A stretch of DNA of 64,000 nt from positions 274,056 through 338,055 of IMG/VR virus record IMGVR_UViG_3300005326_000040, one strand, 5' to 3'. This document shows positions 28,825 to 48,851 of this stretch, piece after piece (position 1 is the stretch's first letter; each line of letters opens with the position of its first letter). Both the position numbers and the translations under genes were made by a program. Source of the stretch: a virus. Taxonomy: Duplodnaviria; Caudoviricetes. The notes beneath the pieces are model-generated. The model saw only the letters and a program-made list of their open reading frames with translations. It made no database searches and was not told the origin of the DNA.

Positions 28825-30537
28825 ATGGGCGAACATCCATCTATCACAAAAGAAGCTTACAATAAAAGTTGGTATCAGGTTAGTGATTTTCTAAACAACT
28901 TCACTTCATTAGGTAAGAACGCCTTAATGAATCGTTCGCGTTCTTATAAGGCAGCTATTTCTGTGCTTCGTAAGGTTGATACAGATATTAGAAAATATAT
29001 TGAGCAGCAGAAGCGAGTTGTCAAGCAAATCAATCGAGCCAAAAAGAAGATGGAGCTTGCTCCGTTCAAACAAGGCGTAGACGATTTTCTTAATCTACAA
29101 GAAGCAATTTTGAAAATTCTGAAACCTGAGGCTCGGGCAGAATTCAACAATATTCTACAGCATGTAAAGCATGAGTTGTTCCGGAATCCAAAAGCAAAGC
29201 GAATTCCGTTCAATCCACATGAGTCTGTTCAGCGTGTTCTTCAAAGTATTAGTGATGCTGGTATGGTAGCTGGCGGTCCAGGATTTGACCCAACAGTAGC
29301 TCCGTTTGATTGGAAAACTCGTGCTCAAGCAACATTTGATGAGCAAGAAAAGGCGCGAAAGAAGAAAGAAAAAGAATCAAAACAGAGACAACAGCAACAG
29401 CGTAAAGCTGAAGCCATCAATGAGTTTGTCAAAAATGGCGGTATGTTTGATTGGTATTTTAGTGGCAGGCATTATAAAAACCTTCAAGAAGGCGACGAGT
29501 TGTATGGAGCTTTAGATAATATCTTCAATACAATTGAAGCCATTTATCAAAATAACGACCAAACTTACAGTGAGCTTCACGCCCATTATGCCAAAGGTGA
29601 CCCTAAAGCATATCTTGATACTTTAGCTTCGTTGGAAAAACAAACGGCTACGGCTACGGCTAGCATTTGGAGCGACTATAATAAGCATCTTGCGCCGCTG
29701 GCAGAGCAAGAAAATGTTTCTTTGAATCCCGTTTCAGAAACAGCCCCCTCTTCAGAACAAGGTGCTGATTTACCGCAAGTTTTTGATGCCGGTGAACCAC
29801 AAGCCGGAGTACAAGCCGAGCCTGATACAAGCCAAAGACGAGAGCCACAAAGTGTTCAGATGAATGCTGATAGTGATATGCATAAGAAAATCGTAGACAC
29901 AATTTATGGCGGCCATTATGACGACGCTATTGAATTGATAAAACAAGAATATAGTTATGATTTATCGTATTATATTGGTTTTTATGGAGGCGGAATTTCT
30001 CAAGATAAAATTGAAGAAATTATGCATGAAACGTTTTATGAAGCTCTTCGTATGCTCCCCAATATAGCTAATAACATAGGTGATGGAAAAAGGTTTAACG
30101 TATTGGGTTGGTTAAAAACAATAGCCGCAACAAAAATTCCAGCACAAAACAGTCAACCTGCGAAACATGTTGAGCCTGTTGTGCAATCTCCTTCTGCTCC
30201 TGTTACGCCCGCTGTTGCTGAGCCCGCTGCTGCTGAGCCTGTCGCACAACCTGTTGTTGAGCCTGCTGAGCCCGCTGCTGAGACTGCTAAACCCGCGCCA
30301 CAACCTAAAGCTTCAAAGGCACCAAAAGCAAAAGCTCCAGCCGGGCTGCCTCGAAAGAAAAAAGTGAAGGTCGAATCTGTAGAACAAGCATTAGAGCAAA
30401 TTACAAAGACAGCCATGGATGGAAATCCTTATGCTGTTGCAGTTGAGATTTTGAAATTTGCCGAGGAAATTGAAGACGTTGATGAGGAGCTAGCAGACCA
30501 ACTTACCGCTATAGCTGAGAGTGTTATCAATGGATAA
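28825..30537 (+). CDS. Putative internal head protein with Ala/Pro/Glu repeat linker
   Basis: ITKEA, FVKNG, ITKTA and LKFA motifs; AEPA repeats at about 30170-30300. Confidence 0.6.
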   Translation: MGEHPSITKEAYNKSWYQVSDFLNNFTSLGKNALMNRSRSYKAAISVLRKVDTDIRKYIEQQKRVVKQINRAKKKMELAPFKQGVDDFLNLQEAILKILKPEARAEFNNILQHVKHELFRNPKAKRIPFNPHESVQRVLQSISDAGMVAGGPGFDPTVAPFDWKTRAQATFDEQEKARKKKEKESKQRQQQQRKAEAINEFVKNGGMFDWYFSGRHYKNLQEGDELYGALDNIFNTIEAIYQNNDQTYSELHAHYAKGDPKAYLDTLASLEKQTATATASIWSDYNKHLAPLAEQENVSLNPVSETAPSSEQGADLPQVFDAGEPQAGVQAEPDTSQRREPQSVQMNADSDMHKKIVDTIYGGHYDDAIELIKQEYSYDLSYYIGFYGGGISQDKIEEIMHETFYEALRMLPNIANNIGDGKRFNVLGWLKTIAATKIPAQNSQPAKHVEPVVQSPSAPVTPAVAEPAAAEPVAQPVVEPAEPAAETAKPAPQPKASKAPKAKAPAGLPRKKKVKVESVEQALEQITKTAMDGNPYAVAVEILKFAEEIEDVDEELADQLTAIAESVING

Positions 30538-31474
30538 TGGGATTATTCGGCAAGCAGCCATACAGATTATTGCTGAACCTAACGATGTCGTTAAGGTTGC
30601 GGGCACTCTTGGAAAAATTAAACGATGGATACGAGGTTTGATTAATCCAACAGTGCGCAGAGAAATAGACATTCTTGATAGGAAATATGACAAGGTTAGA
30701 CCGCTTATAATCCAGTTACAAAGTTCAATTGATCAAATTGAAAAATCGATTGAAGATGTGGATATGTATAGTTATGATTCTGCTATGCAGAGTTTATCCA
30801 AGACACTTACCAATCTCATTTCCAATCTAAGTGGTTTACAACAAGCGGTAGATATTCATCAGGACGCAGCCTCAACAAGCGGAAATGCAGCAGAACAGCG
30901 AAAACCTGGGTGGGTTACATTGATCGACAGAGACCTTCAAAGTCTTTTGGGTAAAAAATCCCTAAGAGATCTCGAAATTGATCTTAGTGATATTGATGAT
31001 AATCCTAAAGAATTTTACAATTCGCTAAAGAGTGAAAGTTTTGGCGGATACGGTAAGCATGGCGTTCGTTCTTTTGCCGCAAATAAGAACATGACTGACG
31101 AGGATGTTTATCAATTTTTAGAGAAGGCTGAGAGCAGTCATATCCTACAGAAGTTTGTAAGACCAGCAATGCTTCAAATGCCGATTGCGAAAATGTCGTT
31201 AGACCAAAGCAAAGAAAACAGCCGAGATTATTTGTTCACTTTGGAGTTGGTTGGTAAAAACATATCATTTGATATTGGTGACCCACAAAAGTATTTAATG
31301 GCAATCAATATAAAAATGGATGTCTTTGGTCCATCACGCCCTAAAAACAAACAAGATTTGAAGCTGTGTCGATTCAAAGTTAACAAACATTATGTTACTA
31401 GCATTAAGTCTGAAGAAGCTGTTGTCCCTTCTGAGCAACCAAGTTCTGAAGAGGCAGGGGAGCAGGTGAAATAA
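30521..31474 (+). CDS. Putative internal head protein
   Basis: IIRQA and VVKVA followed by the amphipathic helix GTLGKIKRWIRGL. Confidence 0.6.
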   Translation: MLSMDNGIIRQAAIQIIAEPNDVVKVAGTLGKIKRWIRGLINPTVRREIDILDRKYDKVRPLIIQLQSSIDQIEKSIEDVDMYSYDSAMQSLSKTLTNLISNLSGLQQAVDIHQDAASTSGNAAEQRKPGWVTLIDRDLQSLLGKKSLRDLEIDLSDIDDNPKEFYNSLKSESFGGYGKHGVRSFAANKNMTDEDVYQFLEKAESSHILQKFVRPAMLQMPIAKMSLDQSKENSRDYLFTLELVGKNISFDIGDPQKYLMAINIKMDVFGPSRPKNKQDLKLCRFKVNKHYVTSIKSEEAVVPSEQPSSEEAGEQVK

Positions 31475-32463: not shown

Positions 32464-32468
32464 GCGAA

Positions 32469-33041
32469 ATGACTATCTATATCTTAGCTGAACAAACTAA
32501 ACTATCAGCCTTTTTTAGCGAAGGGTATTCTGTTCGTCCTGAATGTTTGATTCGCAAAGCCGAGTTGGAAAGCGAAGTCGATAAACTATCAGGCTCTGAA
32601 GGGTTCGTTTTGCTTAAAATTGAAGAGCCCACAATGACAGAAGCTTTGTCTTATGTGCTCCCAGAAGAAGAAATTCATCTCTTTGCAGATGAAGTCAAAA
32701 TTGTAAACCCAGCAGAAGAAGGAATACAATCTCAGGCACTACAAAATTCTTACTCTAACATTTTCAAAACTGCTGGAGCCGAGGTCTATTCTGTTATCCA
32801 AAAAGAAACCGAACAAAACAAAGAGTTGCATTCAAAACTAATTAAAGCTGCAAGAAATTTTGGACTGAATGCAACAAAAGAATATACCACGATTTTCAAG
32901 CGCGCAATGATAGATAAACCAGTGAGAGATGTGTTTCAAAAAACATTTCTTGAAAAGCTTGAAGAAGCTAAACGTCTAGGTGTCAAAAATGCCGAGAAGG
33001 CCGCTGCAATGACAGCGATGAGAAAGGTTGGTTTAATCTAA
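32469..33041 (+). CDS. Putative internal head protein
   Basis: LIRKA, IFKTA, LIKAA and IFKRA motifs. Confidence 0.6.
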   Translation: MTIYILAEQTKLSAFFSEGYSVRPECLIRKAELESEVDKLSGSEGFVLLKIEEPTMTEALSYVLPEEEIHLFADEVKIVNPAEEGIQSQALQNSYSNIFKTAGAEVYSVIQKETEQNKELHSKLIKAARNFGLNATKEYTTIFKRAMIDKPVRDVFQKTFLEKLEEAKRLGVKNAEKAAAMTAMRKVGLI

Positions 33042-34477
33042 TGTCTATTGCTCGGTTTACAGAGGTTTCACCTAATTTGTATCGAGGTGGCGCTCCAACA
33101 GAAGAAGATGTTGGGATTCTTAAGAGCCTATATGGCGTACAGCTAATCATTAGTTTGGATGAGTCTACTGGAAATAAAATCGATAAAGCTTGTAAAAAAT
33201 ATGGCGTTCAACATGTTATCAAACCCGTTCACGAGATGATTGAAAACGGCGTTGACTTGGTTATGGAAGAATTAAAGAGCACAAAAGCCACAGAGCTTAT
33301 TGGCGATAAGGTAGCTTTTGTTCACTGTAAGCATGGAAAAGATAGAACCGGAATGTTTGTAGCTAAATATAGGGTTGAAAATGGATGGTCGCCGAAGAAA
33401 GCTGTAGAAGAAGCTGTAAGTTTTGGTTTTGGCGTAGGTTGTGAACGCAACGTTCAAGATTATCTTGATGTTATTAATTCTGCTGCCACAGAAGATTTTG
33501 CAACACTAGAGGATTATAACAAGCTTTTTGGCAAAGTTAGAACAAAATCAACGTGTGAAAACTGCGGAAAAATCAAATATGACAGCGGCACCTGTACGAA
33601 CTGCGCAAGTGAAACAGGAGAAACTACGATAAAATTGTTTGATGATGCAGGAGATGCGGCAACCGAAACAAGAGACACAATGAATAAAATACTAGACTCT
33701 GACCCTATGTCGGCTCCTACAATCGATCAAAGTATATCCGGAGTTACTGGGTCGCTAAAGTACCCAAAAGCTGTTCGAAAAGGTATTGTTGGTGCCTTAC
33801 ATAAGTATATTGTTGCCCAGCAGCATGAAGTAAGTTCTCAAGTTACGGCAGAAGATGTTGCTCTCGCTAAAAGACTTATCAAGCAGTTTACTACGCTTAT
33901 TAGTCTTATTGATACTCTTATTTTGAAGGACGTTCAAAAATTTATTGAACTTTTGAAGACTGTCAACGGCATTACTCCAGAGTTAATCAAAGAAGTAAAA
34001 GCTGAACCGTATTTTTCAAACTTAGGCAAGAACATCAAAAAGAACTGTTGGAATCTTGTTGGCAATAAATATATCGATGTCGCAGAAGATATTGATGAGA
34101 ACAAAACCAAAAAAGAAAACATGGGAGATACTGATGGAAGAAAATCTCCGTTTGAAGTTTGTTTGGATGGTTTCAGCAAGTTTAATAAAGACACACTTAT
34201 TGGCCCAATGCAAAGCTCTCTCGAAGACGCGATGAAGGGTCTTGTAGATTTGGTTGTAGATTTAGCTGACTTTGTTGAGGAAAAGATTGAAACCAAAGAG
34301 TTTCAACCAAATCTTCTAAAATTACTTGAGGCGATTGAACAACAAACAGCCACTATCAAGTCATTGATTAAGGATAGGGTTATATTTACTTTGAACAAAG
34401 ACGTTGTTGGTTCAGATAAGCCTCATGAAAACAAAGAAGTAAGTGTTCTTCAACAAGTCGTTAACAACAAAAGGTAA
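33041..34477 (+). CDS. Tyr/dual-specificity phosphatase domain fused to Zn motif and helical domain
   Basis: LYRGGAP and catalytic VHCKHGKDRTG (HCxxGxDR); CENC..CTNC. Confidence 0.85.
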   Translation: MSIARFTEVSPNLYRGGAPTEEDVGILKSLYGVQLIISLDESTGNKIDKACKKYGVQHVIKPVHEMIENGVDLVMEELKSTKATELIGDKVAFVHCKHGKDRTGMFVAKYRVENGWSPKKAVEEAVSFGFGVGCERNVQDYLDVINSAATEDFATLEDYNKLFGKVRTKSTCENCGKIKYDSGTCTNCASETGETTIKLFDDAGDAATETRDTMNKILDSDPMSAPTIDQSISGVTGSLKYPKAVRKGIVGALHKYIVAQQHEVSSQVTAEDVALAKRLIKQFTTLISLIDTLILKDVQKFIELLKTVNGITPELIKEVKAEPYFSNLGKNIKKNCWNLVGNKYIDVAEDIDENKTKKENMGDTDGRKSPFEVCLDGFSKFNKDTLIGPMQSSLEDAMKGLVDLVVDLADFVEEKIETKEFQPNLLKLLEAIEQQTATIKSLIKDRVIFTLNKDVVGSDKPHENKEVSVLQQVVNNKR

Positions 34478-34479
34478 CA

Positions 34480-34644
34480 ATGGCGATTGTAAAATATAGC
34501 GATGGCGGAAGTATTGTTCGAGTAGTTGATAAGGAAGAAATTGCGCAAGAGTTAATTGAAGAGAAAGTAATTACGAAAAACGCTAAGGATGAAGATAGTA
34601 AGAATGAAGAAGAAAAGCGGGATGTTCCTTCTTGGGCTAGGTAA
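34480..34644 (+). CDS. Small acidic protein (54 aa, not in ORF track)
   Basis: MAIVKYSDGGSIVRVVDKEEIAQELIEEKVITKNAKDE...WAR* fills the gap exactly and carries ITKNA. Confidence 0.6.
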   Translation: MAIVKYSDGGSIVRVVDKEEIAQELIEEKVITKNAKDEDSKNEEEKRDVPSWAR

Positions 34645-34662
34645 TTGTTATTCTGTTAACCT

Positions 34663-34675
34663 AATATTCTGACAT
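34663..34675 (+). promoter_or_regulatory. Putative late promoter motif AATR-N6-YAT
   Basis: AATA-ttctga-CAT, 16 nt before the protease ATG. Confidence 0.5.
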
Positions 34676-34691
34676 TAACCTCAGAGGAAAA

Positions 34692-37600
34692 ATGAGTATA
34701 TTTAAACGTGGTGAAGCTCTTCAGTTCTCTACATCTGATATAAAACCTACAGACGCCATAGAAAACGATCCATTAGTAATGGAACGTTTCCGAAAAATGG
34801 CGTCTTCGCTGAAAAATAAAATTGCGCCTAAAGCGAATGATTTTTTATATTTTTCGGCTATCATGATGCATGCAGCTGAGAGATCTTTGTATGATGACAA
34901 GGGCAATCTCAAAGTAATTAATGGACGGCCCGTTGAAGCACATTGGGAAGTCAGCGATAAAGGTTCATGGAAGTGGGTATGTTCTGACCCAAACCTCCGA
35001 CCTTATAGAAACGCTAACAGAGATATTTTTCCTGAACTAGAGCTTAAGAAAGCTTACAAGAAATGGGTTGGAAAGCCTCTTTGTAAAGACCATCAATCAA
35101 GCACGATTGAAGGCGTTCGCGGTCTAATTCTAGATACATATTATGATGAAAAAGCAAAAAACGTTATAGCATTATGCGCTATTGACCGCGTAAATTATGG
35201 TGACTTAGCTAGAAATATCGAAACTGGTATTGCTAATTCAGTTTCCATGGGAACGGCAGTTGGATGTTCGATTTGTTCTGAGTGTGGAAACGTAGCTAAG
35301 ACTGAGACTGAGTATTGTCCTCATGTTCGGTCAAGAATTGCTTATGGAGAGATTAACGTTGACCTGTCTCCCATCGAGTTAAGCATTGTTGTTAATGGCG
35401 CAGACCCATTAGCGAGAGTAAGAACAATCATTGCTGCTACAAATCAATTTGAAAATACACTCAAAAAGAGTGCTGGAGCTGGTACAACTTTAGATCAATT
35501 GAATGCTCTTAAAGATGAGTTTTTCAAGCTTGCTGGTAGGATTCAAGAACTCGAAAAAGAAATTACAGTTCCAGATGACAATAATTTCGCATTAAAGGCA
35601 GTGGCATCTCTAGATATTCATGATGATGCCTCAAAACAAATTCAAGAAGAGTATATCAATGGGTTGAGTCTTATTAAGACTAAGATGTCAAACATTGAGA
35701 CGATGTTTCAAAAACTTGCTAACAATAAGTACAATACGGAGGAATTAATGGGGTCAGATACTAAAATTGCCAAAGGGTTTTACCAGGGAACAGAGGAACC
35801 GACCCCTGGACGCCCACAGTACGAAAAAGAAGAAGCCGACAAAATTCGTGACAACGAGGATCGCCAAGTAAAGAATATCGCTGATCTAGGCCCCGTTGAC
35901 GGAATGTTCCCTGGTGATCTTGAGAAAAAGCGTATGCTTGCTCGCGCTGCTGTTGAAGAGCGTCGTGTAAAGCGCGCAGCCCTTGTTGAAAAAGCAAAGC
36001 TTGCTTATATGCAGGGCACAACTGAGCCTGCCAAGAATGGCAAAACTACTTATACACCAGATCCACTAGGTGATAAGGCTCGTGAACAAGATCGTTTCTT
36101 GCAGAGCCCGACTGAGTTCAAGGGTGATGCGGCTCCAGGCGACGTTGAGAAGAAGAAGAAGCTTCTACGCGCTGATCTCAAGGCTCGTTTTACTAAGGCT
36201 GCAAAGCCAAACGGCCAAGAAGACACAGCAAATCATCGCTGGGATATTCTAGCAGACAACAAGGTTGTATTTTCTGCAACACTTAATGAGCTAACTGGTG
36301 GTCGTCGTTCTCTTTATGACTCAGTAAAAACTGCTGAGTTCGCAAAGGGAATGCTTCGTGCTATCAAAGAGGGTGGAGTTGAGAAGGCTGTATCTATTTA
36401 CAAGTCTGCTCAGATGGAAATGGGCGCTGACCCCATGGGCGCTATGCCTCCTGCTATGCCTGCCCCCGCTGCTGCTGGTCCAGTTCCCGGTGATATGATG
36501 GGCGGAATGGGCGCTCCTGCTGATGGCGGCGCTACTCTAGAAGCCGTTCCGGAAACAGTTGCTGACCCCGTCGAGCGTGGCAAGATGTCGCTAGAAGTTC
36601 TTGAGAAGAACATCGACACAATGACCACAAACCTTCGTGAGCTTTCCACCGATATCAAAGGCGGTTATGACACACTAGAGAGCCAGAGTGGACAGTTCGG
36701 CGGCGACGCTGCTGCCCCACTTGCTGCTCCTGCTAATGCAGTTACTGCAAGTCTAAATTCACTACGACGCGGCGCAACAGGCCCAGAAGCCACAGGCGCT
36801 CTTCGTAATATTCAGATTGTACTAAATGCGGGTCTAAAAGAAGCTTTCAAGACTGTTCTTGCTGAGATCGAAGAAAGCGCTGATGAGCTTGATACACTCA
36901 AGGCCACAATCAGCATGCCCGGAATCGATGATGTTCATCAGGAGTTTGTTCAGAATATCGCTGACAGCGCCATTACAGAAGCAAATGAGATCGTTAGCAA
37001 AGCTAATGCTCTTCGTCTTGCCTTTGTAAATTATGCTCGCGGTACATATGGTCTTGAGAAAAAGGCTGCCGTTGAGAATCGTATGCTCAAACTTGCTGCT
37101 GCAAAGAAAGCTAAGAGCAAGAAAGAAAAAGAAGAAGAAGATAAGAAAGCTAAGGAAGCAAAAGAAAAAGGCAAATGCAACAGCAAACCTGCTGGTAAGC
37201 AGCCAGTTCCTCCGCAGAAAACACCAGCGGCTCCCGCTGCCGGAATGAAGGTAAAGGCTTCTGAAGATGATGATGATGTAACCACACTAGAGGGTAAACG
37301 AATGCTTAGAGAAAAACTTGCATCCAAAGCTCTTCAAATGAGCGAAATGCTTAACAAAGCCCATCCAGGCGGCAGCGTTACTATCGGTGATTTGGACACT
37401 AAAACTCAGGAAGCCGTAGTCGAGGACCTTTCTGATGTTCATGACGCTATGGAAAACGCCGCAACATCTACTCCTACCGCCAGCGACAAAACAAAGCGCG
37501 CAGCCAAACGCATTGATGACCTAATCAAAGCTGGGCGCGTTGCTTCTGGCGAACTCGATGACCTCGTCAAGCACGGCTTGGACAAGGATGCAGTATCCTA

Positions 37601-38012
37601 TTGGAAGAAGTATTATGGTCAGGTCGAAGGCGGCAGTGAGTTCGCAAGCGAACTAGTCTCCGATTATGACAAGGAGAAGAGGGCTGCTCTTGATATCGAA
37701 CAGTACAAGGTCAAGCTCGCTCGTGCTTATGACATGGCTCACCGGATGGCTACCGCAGGTATCGTTCCAAATACCGCAGACACCATTCAGAAGGAAGCAG
37801 AGAAGATTGTCAAGTGGAATGACGATGCTTATGAGTCGATGGAGCGCGTAGTTGCCCATCGTAGACCCGAACTCCAGAAGGAAGCTTCTATGAGTATTCA
37901 GAACGGTCTCGCTCTCGATAGTAATATCGCACAGGGCGCACCTGCTGACACTACTCTTGTTGCAGAAATCACACAGGCTCTTATGGGGTCTAAACTAGGA
38001 CGCCGGTTCTAA
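34692..38012 (+). CDS. Prohead maturation protease-scaffold fusion
   Basis: WVGKPLCKDHQ (His), RGLILD, SVSMGT (Ser), CSICSECG..CPH, ELSIVVNGADPLA, then about 750 aa of coiled-coil/low-complexity sequence with many KxA motifs. Confidence 0.8.
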   Translation: MSIFKRGEALQFSTSDIKPTDAIENDPLVMERFRKMASSLKNKIAPKANDFLYFSAIMMHAAERSLYDDKGNLKVINGRPVEAHWEVSDKGSWKWVCSDPNLRPYRNANRDIFPELELKKAYKKWVGKPLCKDHQSSTIEGVRGLILDTYYDEKAKNVIALCAIDRVNYGDLARNIETGIANSVSMGTAVGCSICSECGNVAKTETEYCPHVRSRIAYGEINVDLSPIELSIVVNGADPLARVRTIIAATNQFENTLKKSAGAGTTLDQLNALKDEFFKLAGRIQELEKEITVPDDNNFALKAVASLDIHDDASKQIQEEYINGLSLIKTKMSNIETMFQKLANNKYNTEELMGSDTKIAKGFYQGTEEPTPGRPQYEKEEADKIRDNEDRQVKNIADLGPVDGMFPGDLEKKRMLARAAVEERRVKRAALVEKAKLAYMQGTTEPAKNGKTTYTPDPLGDKAREQDRFLQSPTEFKGDAAPGDVEKKKKLLRADLKARFTKAAKPNGQEDTANHRWDILADNKVVFSATLNELTGGRRSLYDSVKTAEFAKGMLRAIKEGGVEKAVSIYKSAQMEMGADPMGAMPPAMPAPAAAGPVPGDMMGGMGAPADGGATLEAVPETVADPVERGKMSLEVLEKNIDTMTTNLRELSTDIKGGYDTLESQSGQFGGDAAAPLAAPANAVTASLNSLRRGATGPEATGALRNIQIVLNAGLKEAFKTVLAEIEESADELDTLKATISMPGIDDVHQEFVQNIADSAITEANEIVSKANALRLAFVNYARGTYGLEKKAAVENRMLKLAAAKKAKSKKEKEEEDKKAKEAKEKGKCNSKPAGKQPVPPQKTPAAPAAGMKVKASEDDDDVTTLEGKRMLREKLASKALQMSEMLNKAHPGGSVTIGDLDTKTQEAVVEDLSDVHDAMENAATSTPTASDKTKRAAKRIDDLIKAGRVASGELDDLVKHGLDKDAVSYWKKYYGQVEGGSEFASELVSDYDKEKRAALDIEQYKVKLARAYDMAHRMATAGIVPNTADTIQKEAEKIVKWNDDAYESMERVVAHRRPELQKEASMSIQNGLALDSNIAQGAPADTTLVAEITQALMGSKLGRRF

Positions 38013-38042
38013 TCTAACTACATCATCATTGTTTAGAAACTA

Positions 38043-38074
38043 ACGAAGGCCCCTTGATTGGGGCTTTCGTGTTT
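38043..38074 (+). terminator. Rho-independent terminator
   Basis: ACGAAGGCCCC-ttgatt-GGGGCTTTCGT 11-bp stem with GTTT tail. Confidence 0.7.
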
Positions 38075-38168: not shown

Positions 38169-38207
38169 TATTGCTGAAAGGCTATTTAACTTTTTCAGGA
38201 GATTTCA

Positions 38208-39757: not shown

Positions 39758-39760
39758 AAG

Positions 39761-40009
39761 TTATTTCTTCTCATCGGTAGGATAAAGTCTAATCCTTATT
39801 CCTTCATTTGTTTCACATTTTACAATGCCGGTATGTGCCCAAAAATCACGCTTGTGACATTCTAAAATAATTCCGTCTTTACAATTTGCTCGGCAATTAG
39901 TCCAGTTAGCGTCGTCTACTTTATATGCGACAACTAAAGAAAACAAAATAGAAAGAAAAAATGTTGCTATTCCTAGTCCTTGGAGCACGGAAATCAAAAG
40001 TTTTTGCAT
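39761..40009 (-). CDS. Small membrane-anchored 4-Cys protein B
   Basis: N-terminal TM helix, NCRANC...C...FW..TGIVKCET. The ATG at 40009 follows the upstream stop by 1 nt. Confidence 0.65.
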   Translation of the reverse strand: MQKLLISVLQGLGIATFFLSILFSLVVAYKVDDANWTNCRANCKDGIILECHKRDFWAHTGIVKCETNEGIRIRLYPTDEKK

Positions 40010-40010
40010 G

Positions 40011-40253
40011 TTATTTTGCCTTATTGAATTCAATCAATCTTACGCCTTCAACTGTTTCACATCGTACAGTTCCTGACTTCTCCCAAAACCCAATTGTCTG
40101 ACAGTCTTGAACCATACCAGGACACGCTTGCCTACAGTTATCTTTGCCTTTGGAACGACCTATTTCGCCTAAAATCACACCTGTAAACACAGCAACAACT
40201 ACAATTATAATCATACTAGCGATACAATAGTCTGTTATATTATCGATACTCAT
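40011..40253 (-). CDS. Small membrane-anchored 4-Cys protein A
   Basis: N-terminal TM helix, NCRQAC...C...FW..SGTVRCET; paralogue of B. Confidence 0.65.
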   Translation of the reverse strand: MSIDNITDYCIASMIIIVVVAVFTGVILGEIGRSKGKDNCRQACPGMVQDCQTIGFWEKSGTVRCETVEGVRLIEFNKAK

Positions 40254-40867
40254 TTTGGCGCAACCTTTTTGAATTCTGTTGAAAGCTGATTGTAAATCGG
40301 TTGATACTTGTTCTTATAGTAAGTCCAGTCAACACTACCCGACGACATAATTTCGTGAAACAAATCATTGGCTTCTTGATAGTTCACAATCTTGCCTTTG
40401 GTAGCTATTTGCCGACCAAACATTAACACGCGAAGAGAATGCCACAAGCTCTTGATACCAATATGATATTCTTTGGTGACTTCAAGTTTTTTCTTGGCTT
40501 TCACCCATGAGTTGGAAGCCTTATGAGAAATGGAAGCTCGAAGTTTAGGAACATCCAATAGATATCCTGGTTTCAATCTGTCAGCAATAATATGTTGGGG
40601 CGGCAGGAAAAGACATTCTAAAATAGAAATCTCTTGTTCAAGACTTAAAGCTTCAAATTGTCGCTGCTTATAAAACGAAAAATCAAATTCTCCGGTATAA
40701 TGTCGGTCAGGATGTCGAAACGTTTGGTCATCTACAACTACAATAAAATCCTTATCAGAGACTTCCGTCATGGTTCCGTATACTTGAGAACCATAAGCGT
40801 ACACAGCAGCTACTTGGGATAGGTCAATAGCATGCCCGAGTTGGTCGAAAATATTGTCTGAGTTCAT
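40250..40867 (-). CDS. DNA polymerase beta-superfamily nucleotidyltransferase
   Basis: YAYGSQVYGT...SDKDFIVV (GS/DxD), third acid in FDFSFY, helical C domain. Confidence 0.8.
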   Translation of the reverse strand: MNSDNIFDQLGHAIDLSQVAAVYAYGSQVYGTMTEVSDKDFIVVVDDQTFRHPDRHYTGEFDFSFYKQRQFEALSLEQEISILECLFLPPQHIIADRLKPGYLLDVPKLRASISHKASNSWVKAKKKLEVTKEYHIGIKSLWHSLRVLMFGRQIATKGKIVNYQEANDLFHEIMSSGSVDWTYYKNKYQPIYNQLSTEFKKVAPK

Positions 40868-40875
40868 TGATTTTG

Positions 40876-41886
40876 CTAGTATTCTAAAATTTGTTTTGGC
40901 GCGGTCATTTGAAATTCCGTAAGATTTCGTGCGCCCATAAACGAAAAACTAGACTGAATTCCATCTATAATTCCATCCAATGTTTTTTGAATAGGCCCGG
41001 AGGCAGGAATTAATTTTGAAACGCCTTCAATGTGCCTAACATGATTGTCTTCTTTGGACACAACTTGTTTTGCTACAATAGAAGCATTCCCCCAATAATC
41101 CTTGAATTTTTGATTATCAACCATAACTGTTCTGCCATAACTTTCGTCGCAGGCAGCAAACATTTTCCCGACCATTACCATATTGCCCCAAATCATACAT
41201 TTGGCAATATCCGAAGCGTGTTCAATAGAACCATCTAGGCAAAGAAGAGTATCCCAATCATTGGTATCGTCTCGATAAGTTTTTGCTACATGAAGACAGT
41301 GAACTCCAACCCCTGTAGCAAATCTAGTCGAACAGACGCTTCCAAAACTGTTTCCAATTTTGATGATATGGGCTCCTCGATCTCGCAGGTATTTAATTCC
41401 ATCTGTGGAAGAAACATTTCCCGCCATGATGGTAAGTTTCGGGTGGGTGTCTCGGATATACTTTAGGATATCTCCTACCAGCTTGTGATGCCCATGATTT
41501 ACATCGACAATTACGTTTTTTGTTCCTTGGTCAACCAGCCAATCAACAAATTCATAATCTTCTTTTTGAACGCCAATGGAAGGGTAAAATCTTGAAAGTT
41601 CTTCTCTGTTTCTTCGGTTCTTCAAAACTCGAAGAAGCGTTTGATTTCTTTCTTCCTGGGTTCTAAAAAATCGATGATAGCTGGCGGCGGCACCTTCTAC
41701 TAAAAGTTTATCTACCAATTCTTCGGTGCAAATAGAATGCATATTTGCGTTAATTACAGGAATATAGAGATTGGTCAAAACCTTTCCGTTCCCATCAACC
41801 AATAAGGAGGAAATGTCTACCCCAGAGGAACGGGATTCAATCTCAGAATATGCAGGTATTAAAGTGAACGAATCAAATGTCAGCAT
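40876..41886 (-). CDS. GMP reductase / IMP dehydrogenase family protein (no CBS domain)
   Basis: NANM, VDVNHGH, MAGNV, GSVCSTR (catalytic Cys), LDGSI..SDIAK, IEGV; 336 aa. Confidence 0.85.
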   Translation of the reverse strand: MLTFDSFTLIPAYSEIESRSSGVDISSLLVDGNGKVLTNLYIPVINANMHSICTEELVDKLLVEGAAASYHRFFRTQEERNQTLLRVLKNRRNREELSRFYPSIGVQKEDYEFVDWLVDQGTKNVIVDVNHGHHKLVGDILKYIRDTHPKLTIMAGNVSSTDGIKYLRDRGAHIIKIGNSFGSVCSTRFATGVGVHCLHVAKTYRDDTNDWDTLLCLDGSIEHASDIAKCMIWGNMVMVGKMFAACDESYGRTVMVDNQKFKDYWGNASIVAKQVVSKEDNHVRHIEGVSKLIPASGPIQKTLDGIIDGIQSSFSFMGARNLTEFQMTAPKQILEY

Positions 41887-41962
41887 GGCTTTTCTTTATG
41901 CTGGCGGAGCAAATTGCTCGACAAATGTTAGCATAAAAAGCAAGCCATTTTAGAAATAAACT

Positions 41963-41975
41963 AATGATATAGCAT
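41963..41975 (+). promoter_or_regulatory. Putative late promoter motif AATR-N6-YAT
   Basis: AATG-atatag-CAT restarts the + strand head module after the inverted cassette. Confidence 0.5.
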
Positions 41976-41997
41976 CTAGAAGAGATATATCTAAAGG

Positions 41998-42426: not shown

Positions 42427-42433
42427 GGTTAAT

Positions 42434-44164
42434 ATGGTTAGCAAAAATATCTCATTTTCTGAAAGCATTGTTATGCGAGAGTTGGAGCGTATTGCTCGGG
42501 CAAAGAATCTTATTGTAGAAGAGCCTGAAGCTCCCGCTATTGAAAAGAAAGCGTCTGTAAATACTTTGGAGAGTTCTTCGGACCTTTTCTTGGATATGAT
42601 GAAACTCGCTTCTGTTCTACGAGACCGAGGGTTTACTTCTCAGGCTTCGCAGCTAGAAGAGAAAGCCATTATTCTCAAGAAGGCAATGTCAGAAGGTGGA
42701 CATGATAGTTTATACTCTTTCTGGAAGGAAACCGGAGAGAGCCTCGTAAGTGACGCTCACTCCTCGACTGACGCTGATATTCCTGGGCACAAAGTAATGA
42801 ACGCTAATGAAATTGCTAAAGCGGTTCATGAAAGCACAAAAGATAAGCCAACAGGACAGGAGAAGAAGGCGGAGCTTGCCGTTCGTATGGCAAAAATGGT
42901 CAATGGGCTTGTTAATAAAGAGGCTCAGGTTGGCACCGGAATTCTTCAAGGGCTTTTCGGTGGAGCCACTGGTTGGGGTGTTGGTACCGCAGTCCCAGCA
43001 GCGGCTGCACTGGGAGGGCCAGAGCCGGGATCAAGCTCTATACCATCTGCTATGAACGGCGCTGGCGTATCTGCAACTTCAATTCTTCAAAATTTTAGAG
43101 AAGAAAGCAACGGCATTCTTGGTCAATTTTTTTCTTCGGCTACTGAAGCTCAATTAGGTTTGCGCACATTAGCAAATGTTGATTTTAGAACTTATTTTTC
43201 AGACCAAAACATTCAGAATGGGTCAGCTATAAATGGAATACCACAAGTAAACGAAGCAGAGTATTCTCAAATAAGAGCGAAGATTGCTAAAGGTTGTGAT
43301 GATTATATTTCTGTTGTAGGAACAACAGATGTAACATCTCTTCCAAATTGGGGAAATATCAAAATTAACTATCGAATTTCTAGCACTGAAAAAGAGGCTG
43401 TGAAAAACAATATAAAGCAAGTTATCTTGTCTTATGTTGATAAATTCCAATCAAGTTCAAAGAAACTTGTAAATTCGAACTTAGCAATTCTTGATGAGCT
43501 TTTAGTTGGAGACTACAAAGCAACTGTTGACAATATTGACAAAGTGCTCGGCACTAAAAACCAAGTGCTCAGCACTAAACGCTCAAAAGATATAATGGCT
43601 GCGGTTGGCAGTATATCCACATCTCTTGTGCGTATGAAGGGTTTTATTCTGCGAGCATTAAAAGGAATGGCTTCAATAAAGCAAATATACAATAACTATG
43701 ACGTTGTTTCTACAATCTCACAGGGTTTAAGCGGCGCTATCAAAGCTGTTGATTCTTTGGTGGAAAAGCTTAGCCAAACCGAAAGTGGTTTCAAAGAATA
43801 TACTGTAGACATGGAAGATAAAGTTAATGACGCACTGACTTTGTCTGCTGTTATTATTAAAAAGTCAGAAATAGCCAAAAATAATATTGGAAATATTAAG
43901 TCGTTTAATGACGGTACAAAGAAAATGCTTTTAGAAAATATTGATAAGCTTAAAAAAAGACCTACACACGCTTTGTATTTCTTAAAAGCGTTACCTGATT
44001 ACAGTTTCTATTCTGTAAGTGTAGGGTTAGAGATGAAGTCTATGGCTGACTTTGATAGGTATGTTAGTGTTTTGAAAGATATAGATGCGGCTATGGATGC
44101 TCATGTTAAAAACACAAGCGAAATCCTAGATAGAGAAAACAAAGAAGAAACTGGTCTAAGATAG
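42434..44164 (+). CDS. Putative ejection/internal protein with glycine-zipper segment
   Basis: N-terminal shared modules, then VNKEA followed by GILQGLFGGATGWGVGTAVPAAAALGG. Confidence 0.55.
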   Translation: MVSKNISFSESIVMRELERIARAKNLIVEEPEAPAIEKKASVNTLESSSDLFLDMMKLASVLRDRGFTSQASQLEEKAIILKKAMSEGGHDSLYSFWKETGESLVSDAHSSTDADIPGHKVMNANEIAKAVHESTKDKPTGQEKKAELAVRMAKMVNGLVNKEAQVGTGILQGLFGGATGWGVGTAVPAAAALGGPEPGSSSIPSAMNGAGVSATSILQNFREESNGILGQFFSSATEAQLGLRTLANVDFRTYFSDQNIQNGSAINGIPQVNEAEYSQIRAKIAKGCDDYISVVGTTDVTSLPNWGNIKINYRISSTEKEAVKNNIKQVILSYVDKFQSSSKKLVNSNLAILDELLVGDYKATVDNIDKVLGTKNQVLSTKRSKDIMAAVGSISTSLVRMKGFILRALKGMASIKQIYNNYDVVSTISQGLSGAIKAVDSLVEKLSQTESGFKEYTVDMEDKVNDALTLSAVIIKKSEIAKNNIGNIKSFNDGTKKMLLENIDKLKKRPTHALYFLKALPDYSFYSVSVGLEMKSMADFDRYVSVLKDIDAAMDAHVKNTSEILDRENKEETGLR

Positions 44165-44176
44165 GAGAATAGGAAC

Positions 44177-46387
44177 ATGTCAATTAATAAAGTTGCAGAC
44201 GCAGATTTAGTTTCTCAAGTTAATTCTCTTTATGGTAAAGCTGCTCCTTCGCCAAAAGCTCCATCTGGTCCGGCTCAACCTGGGGCCGCTCGTCAACAAA
44301 GTGGTGGCTCCAGTGGTTCTAGCGACAAATATCTAAGCGGTCTTATGGACCGTCTCAAGAAGCTTCCACCGCAGACCGTAGATGCCGTCAGAGCTATGCA
44401 GAAAGCATTATCTAATCTAGGCTCCGGCATTCTTCTTTGGGTTGACAAACAAAAACTTCCTAAGGACCAAGCAAAGAAGTTTATGGATCTAAGCCAGAAA
44501 ATTGGTCACACATATGGCGGGCACGCTTCGTTTACAAGCGAAGATGGTGTCTGGGGTAAGATGACCGCTGAAGCTCTAAAAGCTGTAGATGATTTGATTG
44601 AGCTTATTAAGAAAACCGGCGGCAATATAAGTTCTCCAGGACAACTCACCACACATTTATCTACTGGTGGACTTCCAGATCATGTTGCTATCAACCAGCG
44701 TGACGCTGTATATAATGAAGTTTATTCTACTAACATTCCTATTATCAACGCTGTTCTTCGAAATTTTGGGTTCATGGGTAGCGAAGGTGTGGATGGAGCA
44801 GAACTTGATAGACTTCCTAGAACATTTGACGAAGCTATATCTAATTTAGGAAAGACTCAAATTGTTAAAGATATTATGGATAAATCTCTGTTCCCTGTAT
44901 TGGGACGAGATTTACGATCTCTTGGGACAGCAAAGGATCTTTTAAAGAAAAATGGTTATGAGCTTCCAAACCCAGCCCGAAAATTGGATTCTAAATTTCA
45001 GGTTCTAGAACAAAAGGTTCCATATACTGGAACACAGTATTCTATTGGCGATATTAAAGTTGAAGACTTGGCTTCGTTTTTCGAGACCAACGGATATGTT
45101 ACAAATTGGAAGAGTTTGATTGAATTAGAACAAAAACGTTATGCTGGTATCAAAAGCTCAATATTACGGCAGCCAGCGAGAAATATGAACATTAATGATG
45201 CTCCGCAAATGCGGGAGTTCGTGAAAAACGTCAATGAAGCTTTAAGTGTAGTGGATTCTAGTTTCAACGAAGCATTAAACAGTAACAACGGTCTTATTAA
45301 ACAGAATGAGTTGGTTGGTTACTATCGCGCTTTACAACAGAGAATTTCAGGGGCAGTAAATACGCTACAATCAAAGCTTGGATATGACTCATCTCAAGTG
45401 CGTGATTTAGCCATGTTTGTTCAAACTATGCCGCACAAAGCAATGTCTTATGAGCAGCTTTCTTATACCATCAGTCAAATAAAAGAAAACCCAACATCTA
45501 TTTCTGTACCTAAACAGCTTGCTCAATATCTTGCGAAGATGCAGCAAACCAGAAAATCCGTTGGGTCGGACGCATGGACCGTTTCTCAACTTGAGTGGAT
45601 GGTAAAAATGTTTGTTGAGAGATCAAGCTCTCAATTTGAGCGCGCAACAACTGACACAGAAAAATCTATTAAAAAGCAATACAAAAATTCTGTTGCTCGG
45701 TTGGTTCAACAACTCAATGCTATCAAAGCTTTTGCTAGAGAAAAATTCGACGCAATGGGGCAGAGTGTAGCCGAAGAAACACTTGGTGGACTTATTGTTC
45801 CAGACACTATGCTTCTAAATGGTTTAAGCGGTGTTGATTCTTCTGGAACAGCATTGCAAAACAGAACAAACAAAGCGCCAAACTCACGAGGCAATGAAAA
45901 TAATCCTTGGGGCACTGGTGCTTCTGGCCCTTCTGGCGGCCCAGGGTCTGAAAACCTTGGTTATGTCAAAGACAGTGATACCGTTAAAACCAAGAGGCCA
46001 CCGATTACACCTAATACTATCTTCCTAAAAACTCTGGACGAGTGGTCAAACGCAGAAATTTCTGACATCGTATCCGGCGCCAAAGCAATACTAGAGTACG
46101 GCAAAATCTTCAATAGCGAAGATATGGGCGCAGGATTCTATCAGAGTATCGGATTTACAGCCAATGATATCTCTCGTATTATGGAAGCTATCCAAAGAGC
46201 TATGGATAACTATCTGCGTTTCCTTAGAGCCAAACAGATGACCGAAACAGAGTTGGAAGATAAGGTTCGTGAGGTTTCACGTAACGCCCAAAGATGGATT
46301 GGCACTCTAGCTCAAATGAAATCTAGAATGGCGCCTGACCGCTCAGTAGGGCCAAGAGTTATCGTTGACCGACCCAATCGCAGGTAA
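44177..46387 (+). CDS. Putative ejection/internal protein with peptidoglycan-binding-like motif
   Basis: INKVA at the N-terminus; VRAMQKAL...DGVWGKMTAEAL resembles PG_binding_1. Confidence 0.5.
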   Translation: MSINKVADADLVSQVNSLYGKAAPSPKAPSGPAQPGAARQQSGGSSGSSDKYLSGLMDRLKKLPPQTVDAVRAMQKALSNLGSGILLWVDKQKLPKDQAKKFMDLSQKIGHTYGGHASFTSEDGVWGKMTAEALKAVDDLIELIKKTGGNISSPGQLTTHLSTGGLPDHVAINQRDAVYNEVYSTNIPIINAVLRNFGFMGSEGVDGAELDRLPRTFDEAISNLGKTQIVKDIMDKSLFPVLGRDLRSLGTAKDLLKKNGYELPNPARKLDSKFQVLEQKVPYTGTQYSIGDIKVEDLASFFETNGYVTNWKSLIELEQKRYAGIKSSILRQPARNMNINDAPQMREFVKNVNEALSVVDSSFNEALNSNNGLIKQNELVGYYRALQQRISGAVNTLQSKLGYDSSQVRDLAMFVQTMPHKAMSYEQLSYTISQIKENPTSISVPKQLAQYLAKMQQTRKSVGSDAWTVSQLEWMVKMFVERSSSQFERATTDTEKSIKKQYKNSVARLVQQLNAIKAFAREKFDAMGQSVAEETLGGLIVPDTMLLNGLSGVDSSGTALQNRTNKAPNSRGNENNPWGTGASGPSGGPGSENLGYVKDSDTVKTKRPPITPNTIFLKTLDEWSNAEISDIVSGAKAILEYGKIFNSEDMGAGFYQSIGFTANDISRIMEAIQRAMDNYLRFLRAKQMTETELEDKVREVSRNAQRWIGTLAQMKSRMAPDRSVGPRVIVDRPNRR

Positions 46388-46394
46388 TGTTCAC

Positions 46395-47537
46395 ATGGAA
46401 CGAACAAAACGATTAGAAGCTTTAGCTAAACTCAAGAATGAGACGACTGCACCGGTCATTATTAAACAGGCCGGTGTGGTTGATCTTCTTAAAGATGCCT
46501 TTACTTCTATTTCTCAAAGCGTTGCTTCCAGTTTTGACAAAAGCAGCCCAGTAACCAGCGTGCTTCAATACTTTGCGATAGCAATGATTGCAAGAAGAAG
46601 CGTCTTATTAAGCGCTTTGTTTGCTGCAATCTCTTTGTTTTTTGGCGTCAATGTAGGCTCAGTGTTTGAGTCAATCAAACAACACCTGACACCCCATCTT
46701 CAGTCGCCTGAAGCAATAGAAAATCTCAACAAAAATCAAGATTCAATTGTTCGAGATATTGCAACCAAATCCGTTGACCCAGAAGTAAAGCATTCTGATG
46801 AACAAATTCAAAGCGCTGTAAAAAGCGTTGAATCTTCTGATGGTGCTGATCTTGGTTCCATCTTAGGAGCTTTCAGTCATCATGAATATTATGGTTTAGT
46901 GAAACAAGGCGCAGCCCCTATATCGCCAAATATGGTTAAGAAAATTCTTCCAATCATACAGTTCTTTGGCCCAGGGAGACTTGGAATTGCTGGTATCTTC
47001 TTTTGGATTATCAAAGCTATTCTTATTGGTGCAGGAATTACCGCAGCTACCGGAGTGCTCGGAGGAATGTTAGGTCATAAACCTGTAACACCAGAAACCT
47101 CTGAAGTGGCAACTGAGACAACTGAGAAAGAAGAATCAAAACCTCTTCCGCAGAGCAATCAAGTTGCTCCGTCCGATAAATCGCCGCAAATTGCTTCTAA
47201 ACTCAAAAGCAAGAACAATACCGCTCTTGAGTCTCCTGTTCCAAATAGCGGCGGAGCAGAATGGGTTCTTAGCGCAAAAGTAGATAACCATTCTCAAGCC
47301 GTAGACGCTTTTGCAAAACAACTTTTTGATGATGTCTTCCGCGCTTATACCGGATTTGAAAATGCACAAATCCCTTCTTCAAAAGTAATGCAGGCAGCTA
47401 AAGCTACTGTCACAGAGTTTATGCAGAAAACTAATTTCAAGTTCAACCAAGATGACAACGTGCAAGAACTTCGTATCCCTGGTAAGTTTACAACCAGAAT
47501 GCAAATTATCAATCATATTCTTGGAAAGATGCAATAA
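46395..47537 (+). CDS. Putative ejection protein with multiple transmembrane segments
   Basis: IIKQA and LVKQG each precede hydrophobic segments. The ATG at 46395 is preferred over the overlapping start at 46365. Confidence 0.55.
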   Translation: MERTKRLEALAKLKNETTAPVIIKQAGVVDLLKDAFTSISQSVASSFDKSSPVTSVLQYFAIAMIARRSVLLSALFAAISLFFGVNVGSVFESIKQHLTPHLQSPEAIENLNKNQDSIVRDIATKSVDPEVKHSDEQIQSAVKSVESSDGADLGSILGAFSHHEYYGLVKQGAAPISPNMVKKILPIIQFFGPGRLGIAGIFFWIIKAILIGAGITAATGVLGGMLGHKPVTPETSEVATETTEKEESKPLPQSNQVAPSDKSPQIASKLKSKNNTALESPVPNSGGAEWVLSAKVDNHSQAVDAFAKQLFDDVFRAYTGFENAQIPSSKVMQAAKATVTEFMQKTNFKFNQDDNVQELRIPGKFTTRMQIINHILGKMQ

Positions 47538-47545
47538 TCAAGTAT
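47533..47545 (+). promoter_or_regulatory. Putative late promoter motif AATR-N6-YAT
   Basis: AATA-atcaag-TAT before 47568. Confidence 0.45.
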
Positions 47546-47567
47546 ATATTCAAACAGAGGCAAAAAA

Positions 47568-48851
47568 ATGACACGCAGAAAAAATTATGAAGATCTAGCT
47601 CGGTTTGATAACAGCGAAGTTATGCGCGAATTTGTAAAGATCGCTTACGACAGCGGCTTAGCCCAACTCAAAGATTCTGACGTTCCATCTTATTCTGTCA
47701 AAGATGGACGTAACGGTTCTGATTCCGTTAAAGATATTGCTGAGAAATATTCTGATAAAGCAACTCTCGACCAAGACAAAGACGGCGAAGAGTTGATCGA
47801 AAAGGCTCATAAAGAAAAAGCTGAAGCCATCAATTCTTATCTCAAAGACGGCGGGCGTGTAGAAGACCTAAACGAACAACACAAAATTATGGTTGATGTT
47901 GCTACCAAAGGCCCTTCTATTAATGACTTCTATCACAGAAACATCTCAGCTATCAAAAACGTTTTAGATGAACTTGTTGTTATCGGGCATGAAATGGATG
48001 CAAGAGAAGAAGATGATATCGTCGTTTTTGCCGATGAAATTATCGCTGGAATTACAGCGACGGGCGAAGCTGTTGATGAAGACCTAAAAAAAAAGTTAAA
48101 TAAAATCGCTCTAAACGCTCAGCCTGTAGAGGGTCTTCTTTCTAAATTCTTCAAGTTTGTAAAATATAGTGTTCCTGCAATTGGTGTTGGAGTAGCAGCT
48201 TACTTTACTCTTTCTCATATGAGCAAGGGAAAGTCAGCAAATGTTCTTACGACTTCTGAAGGAAACGTAGGCACAATTGACCGATTTATCAATTCTGCAA
48301 CTATATATATTTCAGAAAACACTAATAAACTTGACCCGGCAGAACTGAAAGATATGAATCGTCTAGTTAACACAATGAAACTTTTTCGTAGCGAATACAA
48401 CAAAACGTCACGGCAATTTTTTGAAGTAAGACGTTCTATTATAAATGCTATTGATTATTCTGGAACATTTGATTCTAAAAATCTTGATAAACTATATTCT
48501 GATTTGCAGCAGGCTGACGCTGGGTTCAATAAAGTTGTTGAGTCTTTCAAAACTCAACTTGACGCCAATGCTCAACAATTAAACCTTTCCAAAGATGTAG
48601 CCAGCAATAGATTCATTAGTTCTGATCAGGAATATTCTAGAACAACTGATGCAAAGAAAGTTTTGGACGCTACATTTGAAGCTATGTATTCTACTGAAGA
48701 ACAAGTGCTAGCCGAAGCTTACGCTGATGTTATTAACTCGATAAAAGCCGAAGCAAAGAACCGCACTAGTATTATGAGTTATCTTCAAGCGCAAATTGAT
48801 GCTTATAAACAACGTTTAGCCTCTGAAAACACTGAGAAGCCAAAGGAATAA
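47568..48851 (+). CDS. Putative ejection/internal protein with TM helix
   Basis: Carries all three shared modules, then LNKIA followed by GLLSKFFKFVKYSVPAIGVGVAAYFTL. Confidence 0.55.
   Translation: MTRRKNYEDLARFDNSEVMREFVKIAYDSGLAQLKDSDVPSYSVKDGRNGSDSVKDIAEKYSDKATLDQDKDGEELIEKAHKEKAEAINSYLKDGGRVEDLNEQHKIMVDVATKGPSINDFYHRNISAIKNVLDELVVIGHEMDAREEDDIVVFADEIIAGITATGEAVDEDLKKKLNKIALNAQPVEGLLSKFFKFVKYSVPAIGVGVAAYFTLSHMSKGKSANVLTTSEGNVGTIDRFINSATIYISENTNKLDPAELKDMNRLVNTMKLFRSEYNKTSRQFFEVRRSIINAIDYSGTFDSKNLDKLYSDLQQADAGFNKVVESFKTQLDANAQQLNLSKDVASNRFISSDQEYSRTTDAKKVLDATFEAMYSTEEQVLAEAYADVINSIKAEAKNRTSIMSYLQAQIDAYKQRLASENTEKPKE

Follow-up and report, generated by a model that had tools for sequence, protein, structure and literature searches.

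What is the short lysine-centred motif that recurs through the head proteins of a phage-G-like jumbo phage, and does it mark the places where membrane-inserting helices are set free? The window analysed here is the final 64 kb of a virus record that is 338 kb long and has an estimated completeness of 97% (IMG/VR record IMGVR_UViG_3300005326_000040, positions 274,056 to 338,055; 64,000 nucleotides), and it is the head module of such a phage. Its terminase, portal, protease, decoration and capsid genes flank a series of genes whose products carry the motif Φ-x-K-x-A, in which Φ is L, I, V, F or M, the Lys is invariant and the Ala is rarely Gly. A prediction made earlier from the letters of this DNA (the original prediction) held that amphipathic or transmembrane (TM) helices start directly after K-x-A sites, and that cargo is packaged as pro-proteins whose cleavage in the capsid frees membrane-active N-termini for use during injection. 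The observation is partly confirmed and the interpretation partly supported. Two conserved protein families, here called F46 and F47, have the motif ahead of membrane-type helices. We tentatively favour, with slightly less than even confidence, a reading in which head proteins are processed by a protease and F46 and F47 are membrane-inserting ejection proteins.

A lysine-based motif recurs in head-module proteins

The pattern Φ-Φ'-K-x-A occurs 23 times in the head-module proteins, against 6.3 expected from within-protein shuffles, and its observed-to-expected ratio in the remainder of the genome is ~ 1.2. For the glutamate version, Φ-Φ'-E-x-[AG], the head module shows no excess (9 observed, 8.5 expected). 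The motif is also concentrated near N-termini. Among relatives' proteins of at least 150 amino acids (aa) encoded upstream of the capsid gene, 63% have it in the first 45 residues, where 14% would be expected; the figure for genes downstream of the capsid gene is 25%. Across homolog families, position -2 of the sites is always L, I, V, F or M, and positions -1, +1 and +3 are free to vary. The conserved sites are carried by families with only 17-30% identity (F46, F47 and F42, the last a paralog of F47), and the proteins from the two fast-evolving genes that separate F42 from F46 begin, in nearly every case, with a short helix that leads into the motif and on to a Pro/Ala/Gly-rich linker. Phage G has the motif as well, in its gp19 protease, in gp20 (LKKTA) and at the N-terminus of its portal, and a further listed site is MAKQA in gp14. 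Pure chance is ruled out as its source by the enrichment, the invariant Lys column in F46 and the counts of sites within families.

Judged from sequence, Φ-x-K-x-A is real and under selection, and is the best-conserved element of these fast-evolving proteins. We consider it very probably functional and, with less assurance, probably a protease site. By analogy, the pattern is that of the prohead-protease cut sites of T4, phiKZ and SPN3US, with Lys/Ala replacing Glu. The scissile bond could lie after the Lys, if T4 Φ-x-E is the guide, or after the Ala, as herpesvirus assemblin would suggest. Assemblin cuts between Ala and Ser.

The candidate protease and the capsid protein both carry the motif:

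34692-38012, + strand: head maturation protease domain (~ aa 100-240) fused to a long C-terminal part, 1106 aa
50378-50392, + strand: IMKYA, aa 22-26 of the major capsid protein, with Φ-x-K-[YF]-A kept among the distinct N-termini listed

The N-terminal part of the 34692-38012 protein matches phrog_18299, annotated as head maturation protease (E value 3.7e-14). The protease is 33% identical to phage G gp19, with invariant D133-H134, S185 (in S-M-G) and D238 (in G-A-D). Two or three copies of the motif occur in its N-terminal region in all relatives, and copies also run across the long C-terminal part of the window's protein. In the major capsid protein the motif lies in an N-terminal extension of ~ 42 residues (window 50315-50450) that is without counterpart in phage G gp27 (282 aa). 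The idea that K-x-A is a protease-type site is supported: it is the best-conserved element, both the capsid protein and the protease have it near their N-termini, and it falls in linkers that AlphaFold2 (AF2) predicts with low confidence.

Within the protease domain (window 35270-35330, ~ aa 195-211) there is an invariant Cys-x2-Cys...Cys-x-His cluster (C195, C198, C209 and H211), kept in all relatives including phage G gp19, with weak zinc-ribbon hints in Pfam at a loose threshold. A zinc ribbon within a prohead protease domain seems unusual. Weak, short matches to the capsid protein occur elsewhere in the genome (G000:C1:242357-242473 and 28225-28926, E values 4e-8 to 7e-4) and may be diverged capsid-fold paralogs or fragments.

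Two families set the motif ahead of membrane-type helices

F46 runs from a short leader through the motif, an amphipathic helix, a TM hairpin, a second motif and a long TM helix to a C-terminal alpha/beta domain. Confidence in the AF2 models is given as the predicted local distance difference test (pLDDT).

46395-47537, + strand: F46 protein, 380 aa, 57 homologs in 57 related loci (alignment A2; AF2 mean pLDDT 71)
46458-46472, + strand: F46 site 1, IIKQA, aa 22-26, motif in 39 of 40 homologs; AF2 stretch 17-26 has pLDDT < 50
46473-46532, + strand: amphipathic helix directly after site 1, hydrophobicity 91st and moment 92nd percentile; AF2 helix 26-46
46548-46700, + strand: hydrophobic hairpin of TM-like helices, hydrophobic block aa 68-94; AF2 helices 52-102
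46896-46910, + strand: F46 site 2, LVKQG, aa 168-172, motif in 30 of 40 homologs; AF2 stretch 160-173 has pLDDT < 50
46944-47078, + strand: second hydrophobic block, TM-like, 12 aa past site 2; AF2 helices 178-190 and 195-225

The true start is the ATG at 46395, given the homolog alignment and an upstream stop. A single-sequence locus search for close relatives of F46 returned none, and the alignment comprises 40 full-length members with ~ 17% identity to the window's protein. At this level of divergence the only invariant column of the family is the Lys of site 1 (K24, in 40 of 40 members; the Ala is kept in 38 of 40). Most homologs have a TM-like segment at the place equivalent to the hairpin, which lies ~ 25-50 residues from site 1, and the TM-like segment that follows site 2 is mostly 10-26 aa past it. 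In the AF2 model, stretches 17-26 and 160-173 are the only low-confidence linkers of the N-terminal half, and a helix follows each.

F47 has an N-terminal domain in common with F42, then the motif, an amphipathic and TM segment, and a C-terminal helical bundle.

47568-48851, + strand: F47 protein, 427 aa (alignment A1; AF2 model)
47631-47645, + strand: F47 site A, FVKIA, aa 22-26, motif in 41 of 44 homologs, with K24, I25 and A26 at least 90% conserved
48096-48110, + strand: F47 site B, LNKIA, aa 177-181, motif in 40 of 44 homologs, with K179 at least 90% conserved
48132-48221, + strand: amphipathic stretch (GLLSKFFKFVKY) and weak TM-like helix
42434-44164, + strand: F42 protein, 576 aa, paralog of F47 in the N-terminal domain
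42539-42553, + strand: F42 site IEKKA, aa 36-40, motif in 32 of 38 homologs, with K38 invariant in alignment A4
42911-43021, + strand: F42 site VNKEA and a Gly-rich hydrophobic block, motif in 7 of 38 homologs

In the F47 family, as in SPN3US gp47, the putative mature fragment would open with a predicted TM helix, which starts within 4 residues of the motif in most homologs; where a TM segment is detected, it mostly begins -3 to +4 residues from the Ala of the motif. The window's F47 has a 20-residue insert at the site B junction, and this holds the amphipathic GLLSKFFKFVKY. Site A falls within an AF2-predicted helix. Site B closes AF2 helix 149-183, directly ahead of a hydrophobic stretch (184-225) with pLDDT < 50, and that stretch is therefore not confidently part of a soluble fold. 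In terms of accessibility, both F46 sites are in pLDDT < 50 linkers before helices, and the F47 site is at a helix end.

The N-terminal domains of F42 and F47, ~ 125-150 residues long, are homologous (hhalign probability 97.4%, E value 1.2e-11). The motif starts this shared domain, and the two proteins differ downstream of it. Such an arrangement would suit a pro-domain that serves in targeting or chaperoning and is then removed by cleavage. The Gly-rich block that follows VNKEA in F42 is an insert at 42926-43021 in this phage only. Its absence from the other homologs rules it out as a conserved feature, and with its site found in few homologs it no longer serves as one of the examples.

Database searches assign neither family a function. 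No families were found in Pfam or PHROG for F46, F47 or the other cargo-like proteins, and a BFVD fold search of F46 and F47 matched only uncharacterised proteins of uncultured phages. Against the PDB, VIA-align returned generic helical bundles (Z at most 6.7) and Foldseek returned nothing at an E value of 0.001 or below; a Foldseek match to the ClyA pore toxin (E value 0.26) is not evidence. The ESM Atlas search gave no usable matches for either protein.

Membrane-type character of the segments after the sites

All eight peptides quoted in the original prediction are present, although the VNKEA codons begin at 42911 rather than 42908 and the open reading frame given as 46365 starts at 46395. 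We scored the 18-mers that follow the sites for mean hydrophobicity and helical moment, as percentiles of all 18-mers in head-module proteins. The 30587 segment (GTLGKIKRWIRGL) has a moment in the 95th-100th percentile and a net charge of +4, and the Gly-rich block at 42911 is in the 99th percentile for hydrophobicity. The 46458 segment is at the 91st percentile for hydrophobicity and the 92nd for moment, that at 46896 is transmembrane-like (hydrophobicity 95th-99th percentile), and that at 48096 reaches the 82nd-99th percentile for hydrophobicity and the 87th-95th for moment. The segment at 29425 (GMFDWYF) is at only the 43rd and 41st percentiles and is therefore neither hydrophobic nor amphipathic. 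So five of the six quoted examples are in the top decile on one measure or the other, and the 29425 example fails as an amphipathic or TM helix.

The same association can be sought from the hydrophobic side. There are eight strongly hydrophobic blocks in the head-module proteins. Within 12 aa downstream of a site, three of them begin where 0.66 would be expected (p = 0.02); within 21 aa the number is four, against an expectation of 1.1 (p = 0.013; permutation).

A resemblance of these segments to antimicrobial peptides such as aurein had also been suggested. The start of F46 after site 1, G-V-V-D-L-L-K, is superficially like aurein, but the segment is not cationic, and the fragments here would be 140-350 residues long rather than free 13-25-mers. 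In homologs the residue after the site (P1') is Q, G, D or E, and the G-Φ-Φ start is not conserved. With no short, free, cationic amphipathic peptide, and segments that are the ends of large fragments, aurein-like peptides are ruled out and the likeness falls away.

Proposed processing and its alternatives

How might these observations fit together? The head maturation protease encoded at 34692-38012 would read Φ-x-K-x-A as its recognition motif. Most of the proteins encoded between portal and capsid would be made as motif-bearing pro-proteins, brought into the prohead and trimmed there at the motif. In F46, a first cut would take off a 26-residue leader and a second would split the protein ahead of its second TM block. 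In F47, a cut would separate the ~ 180-residue N-terminal part, with its F42-shared domain, from the TM helix and the C-terminal helical bundle. The resulting fragments would start at or near membrane-inserting helices and would most likely be ejection proteins, inserting into the cytoplasmic membrane of the host upon infection. The parts of this scheme differ in strength. That F46 and F47 are inside the virion seems to us somewhat probable. Their insertion into the host membrane at infection is possible, though we would lean against it, and cleavage as the event that unmasks the helices is doubtful.

What is observed directly is the motif, how well it is conserved and where it stands with respect to the helices; cleavage, packaging and ejection in this phage we infer. 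Several further points weigh against the scheme. Over all 48 Φ-x-K-x-[AG] sites of the head module, the sequence after the site is not above background (hydrophobic, p = 0.36; amphipathic, p = 0.15), and many sites come before Pro/Ala/Gly-rich linkers. These background-level segments rule out a rule by which every K-x-A site precedes a helix; the claim of helices directly after K-x-A stands for the two conserved families F46 and F47 but not as a general property. The pattern Φ-Φ'-K-x-[LIV] is likewise enriched, 1.9-fold, so ordinary amphipathic-helix periodicity contributes to the motif excess. In relatives, genes that lie downstream of the capsid gene exceed shuffles overall to the same degree (1.84 vs 1.89). 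The protease assignment stands on the PHROG profile and homology to phage G gp19, and the domain has no matches in Pfam and PDB sequence or profile searches. The positive-inside rule may account in part for a conserved Lys beside a TM helix. True TM proteins are normally inserted into the membrane of the cell that makes them, and would then need some route to the prohead. Finally, the equivalent genomic position in phage G holds an endolysin and holin-like genes.

This last point leads to a quite different account, in which F46 and F47 belong to the envelope of the infected cell (for lysis, superinfection exclusion or a similar role) and happen to be encoded in a head operon, and Lys-x-Ala is an uncut positive flank. 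Phage G has an endolysin and two small TM proteins between its protease and decoration/capsid genes, basic residues lie on the N-side of the F47 TM helix, and the neighbouring 44177 protein has a weak peptidoglycan-binding match (PG_binding_1, E value 0.0014, below the curated cut-off), with no catalytic lysin domain found nearby. However, at 380 and 427 aa F46 and F47 are far above holin size. The N-terminal site of F46 is 25-50 residues from any TM helix yet bears the only invariant residue of the family, the Φ at position -2 is conserved as well as the Lys, and the N-terminal domain of F47 is common to F42, which is without a TM helix in most relatives. We regard this account as improbable. 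We give equally little credence to one in which Φ-x-K-x-A is an uncut docking or targeting motif, bound by scaffold, portal or chaperone, and the later helices are ordinary parts of folded or oligomeric proteins. In its favour, the motif is often within a short N-terminal amphipathic helix, like the capsid-targeting sequence of T4, and F47 site A is inside a predicted helix. The recurrent motifs of this kind in T4, phiKZ and SPN3US are cut sites, though, and cutting is the better fit to the internal copies in disordered inter-domain linkers and to the multiple copies in the protease, in its N-terminal region in all relatives and in the C-terminal part in the window.

A third account accepts the protease site and changes its purpose: the TM proteins would anchor the prohead core at the host inner membrane, and the cut would release the prohead or soluble domains while the helices stay behind. 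This would explain how TM proteins made in the cytoplasm could join the assembly, and the F47-family site abuts the TM helix, an ideal spot for a release cut. For T4 and SPN3US, prohead assembly is believed to take place at the inner membrane, with release once proteolytic maturation occurs (PMC10052503). On the other hand, the protease works inside a closed prohead, so the membrane-embedded segment would have to sit outside the shell, and F46 carries two separate sites plus a short leader at its N-terminus, like those of other head-module proteins. We know of no phage that uses such an anchor, and we consider this account, too, rather unlikely. Our preference stays, tentatively, with processed head proteins of which F46 and F47 serve in ejection.

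Comparison with known systems

Is such a system new? Protease-trimmed, membrane-inserting injection proteins are not: the idea has already been proposed for Salmonella phage SPN3US. There the prohead protease gp245 cuts gp47, an essential head protein, at A-x-E; a TM helix is predicted at the N-terminus of the mature fragment, and the authors proposed that this helix interacts with the host membrane (PMC5694885). SPN3US propeptides fall into two sizes, short ones of 20-24 aa and long ones of 111-254 aa with several internal cuts, and paralogs have them in common (PMC5694885, PMC10052503). The likeness to SPN3US, phiKZ and 201phi2-1 lies in a jumbo-phage head module with a prohead protease and a short recurrent motif in many head proteins, and F42 and F47 share an N-terminal domain as the SPN3US paralogs gp53 and gp54 share propeptides. 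The differences are that SPN3US cuts at A-x-E after Glu, whereas the predicted site here is Φ-x-K-x-A with an invariant Lys, and that the lineage is another one, with a phage-G-like capsid protein. PHROG searches of F46 and F47 found nothing, and gave no sequence family in common with SPN3US. Of the features that mark systems of the T4, phiKZ and SPN3US type, the phage has a protease in the head module and a motif that recurs in capsid, protease and head proteins, but this motif does not end in Glu. The new elements are the lineage, the Lys-based motif, the duplicated pro-domain and a junction of site and TM helix that members of a large uncultured clade conserve. We found no published Φ-x-K-x-A prohead-protease motif and no report of phage G cleavage sites, the phage G proteome paper included, in a limited literature search.

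T4 offers a second parallel, in its capsid-targeting sequence and the gp21 processing of IPI-III and Alt: a short N-terminal leader that ends in a protease motif, on proteins that are packed and then injected. The T4 motif is L/I-x-E, however, the T4 internal proteins are soluble rather than TM, and the leaders here vary between families instead of being one shared sequence. The ejection proteins of podophages, T7 gp14-gp16 and P22 gp7, gp20 and gp16, are stored in the capsid, exit together with the DNA and then insert into the envelope of the host or span it. To our knowledge they are not activated by a prohead protease. The proteins here are not known to be homologous to them, and this phage is probably a myovirus by its kinship to phage G. 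No match to the Pfam tail-sheath model was found in the genome, so the assignment only follows from that kinship.

If Φ-x-K-x-A is a cut site, it provides a simple rule to predict the mature virion proteome and the packaged cargo across a large, wholly uncultured group of 340-450-kb phages, and it adds basic-residue specificity to the known acid-specific prohead proteases. F46 and F47 would then be candidates for the transfer of DNA and proteins of giant myophages through the cytoplasmic membrane, a poorly understood step and the same membrane-passage question that SPN3US gp47 raised (PMC5694885). Extended to the whole phage-G-like clade (at least 393 IMG/VR contigs), the picture would be of a Lys-based prohead-protease code and of capsid-stored TM ejection proteins, latent under N-terminal pro-domains (one of them shared, duplicated and ~ 150 residues long) and armed by cleavage in the head. 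We offer this full picture as speculation and think it unlikely to hold in every part.

Other sites and the genomic setting

Two further examples from the original prediction lie just downstream of the portal gene:

28825-30537, + strand: first gene 3' of the portal, 570 aa, positional orthologs in 9 distinct related loci
29425-29475, + strand: site FVKNG, then GMFDWYFSGRHY
30587-30655, + strand: site VVKVA and a cationic amphipathic helix in the protein encoded at 30521/30530-31474, moment in the 95th-100th percentile

The site of the 28825 family takes the form Φ-x-K-E-A followed by x-Φ-x-D-Φ-Φ in 8 of the 9 positional orthologs. With the window's protein counted, the site is present in 9 of 10 compared proteins, and the tenth has Ser in place of the Lys. 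The x-Φ-x-D-Φ-Φ element, followed by a polar conserved block, looks like part of a folded domain. Among the relatives compared, the 30587 site is conserved only in loci L089 and L091; the positional genes of the others encode unrelated proteins. Its segment (30602-30655) is the only one that is both cationic and amphipathic, and it has no downstream site to free it. In loci L090 and L092-L097 the second gene after the portal looks, by eye, as if it encoded a cell-wall hydrolase, with N-termini that resemble lytic transglycosylases or glucosaminidases, which suggests that more distant relatives encode envelope-acting proteins beside the portal. Outside the head module, 5.9 kb upstream of the window, ITKQA lies directly ahead of a TM-like helix in a 782-aa protein (G000:C1:265794-268142).

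The remaining landmarks of the head module are as follows:

25107-26999: large terminase (Pfam GpA_ATPase)
27012-28763: portal (phrog_16240)
49573-50232: conserved 219-aa gene just 5' of the capsid gene, at the position of the annotated phage G decoration protein gp26
50315-51328: major capsid protein (phrog_2522, E value 4e-76)

Among cultured phages the nearest is Bacillus phage G, whose capsid protein is 53% identical. In tblastn comparisons with phage G, Rctr197k and LR745208 the shared genes are portal, protease and capsid only, and a megablast of the region against phage records found no match. IMG/VR holds at least 393 contigs whose capsid proteins are 75-85% identical to that of the window, and several of these contigs reach 340-450 kb. 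Evolution is much faster in the genes between portal and capsid (17-35% identity), yet gene order is kept, and the arrangement of portal, protease, F42, two further genes, F46, F47, decoration and capsid is preserved across dozens of relatives. The portal as a locus query returned only 2 loci, and portal-side regions were taken from long contigs instead.

Some neighbouring genes deserve mention. The 736-aa protein encoded at 44177-46387 has INKVA at residues 3-7 and a Pro/Gly-rich linker; relatives have two genes at its position, each encoding a helix, then the motif, then a Pro/Gly-rich linker. A 478-aa head-module protein (33041-34477) has an N-terminal dual-specificity/tyrosine phosphatase domain (Pfam Y_phosphatase2, E value 4e-8); relatives keep homologs of it between portal and protease, and it is possibly a packaged enzyme. 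On the opposite strand within the head module (40250-41886, - strand) are a GMP reductase/IMPDH-family gene (E value 6e-58) and a nucleotidyltransferase gene, adjoined by two open reading frames for small TM proteins (39761-40253).

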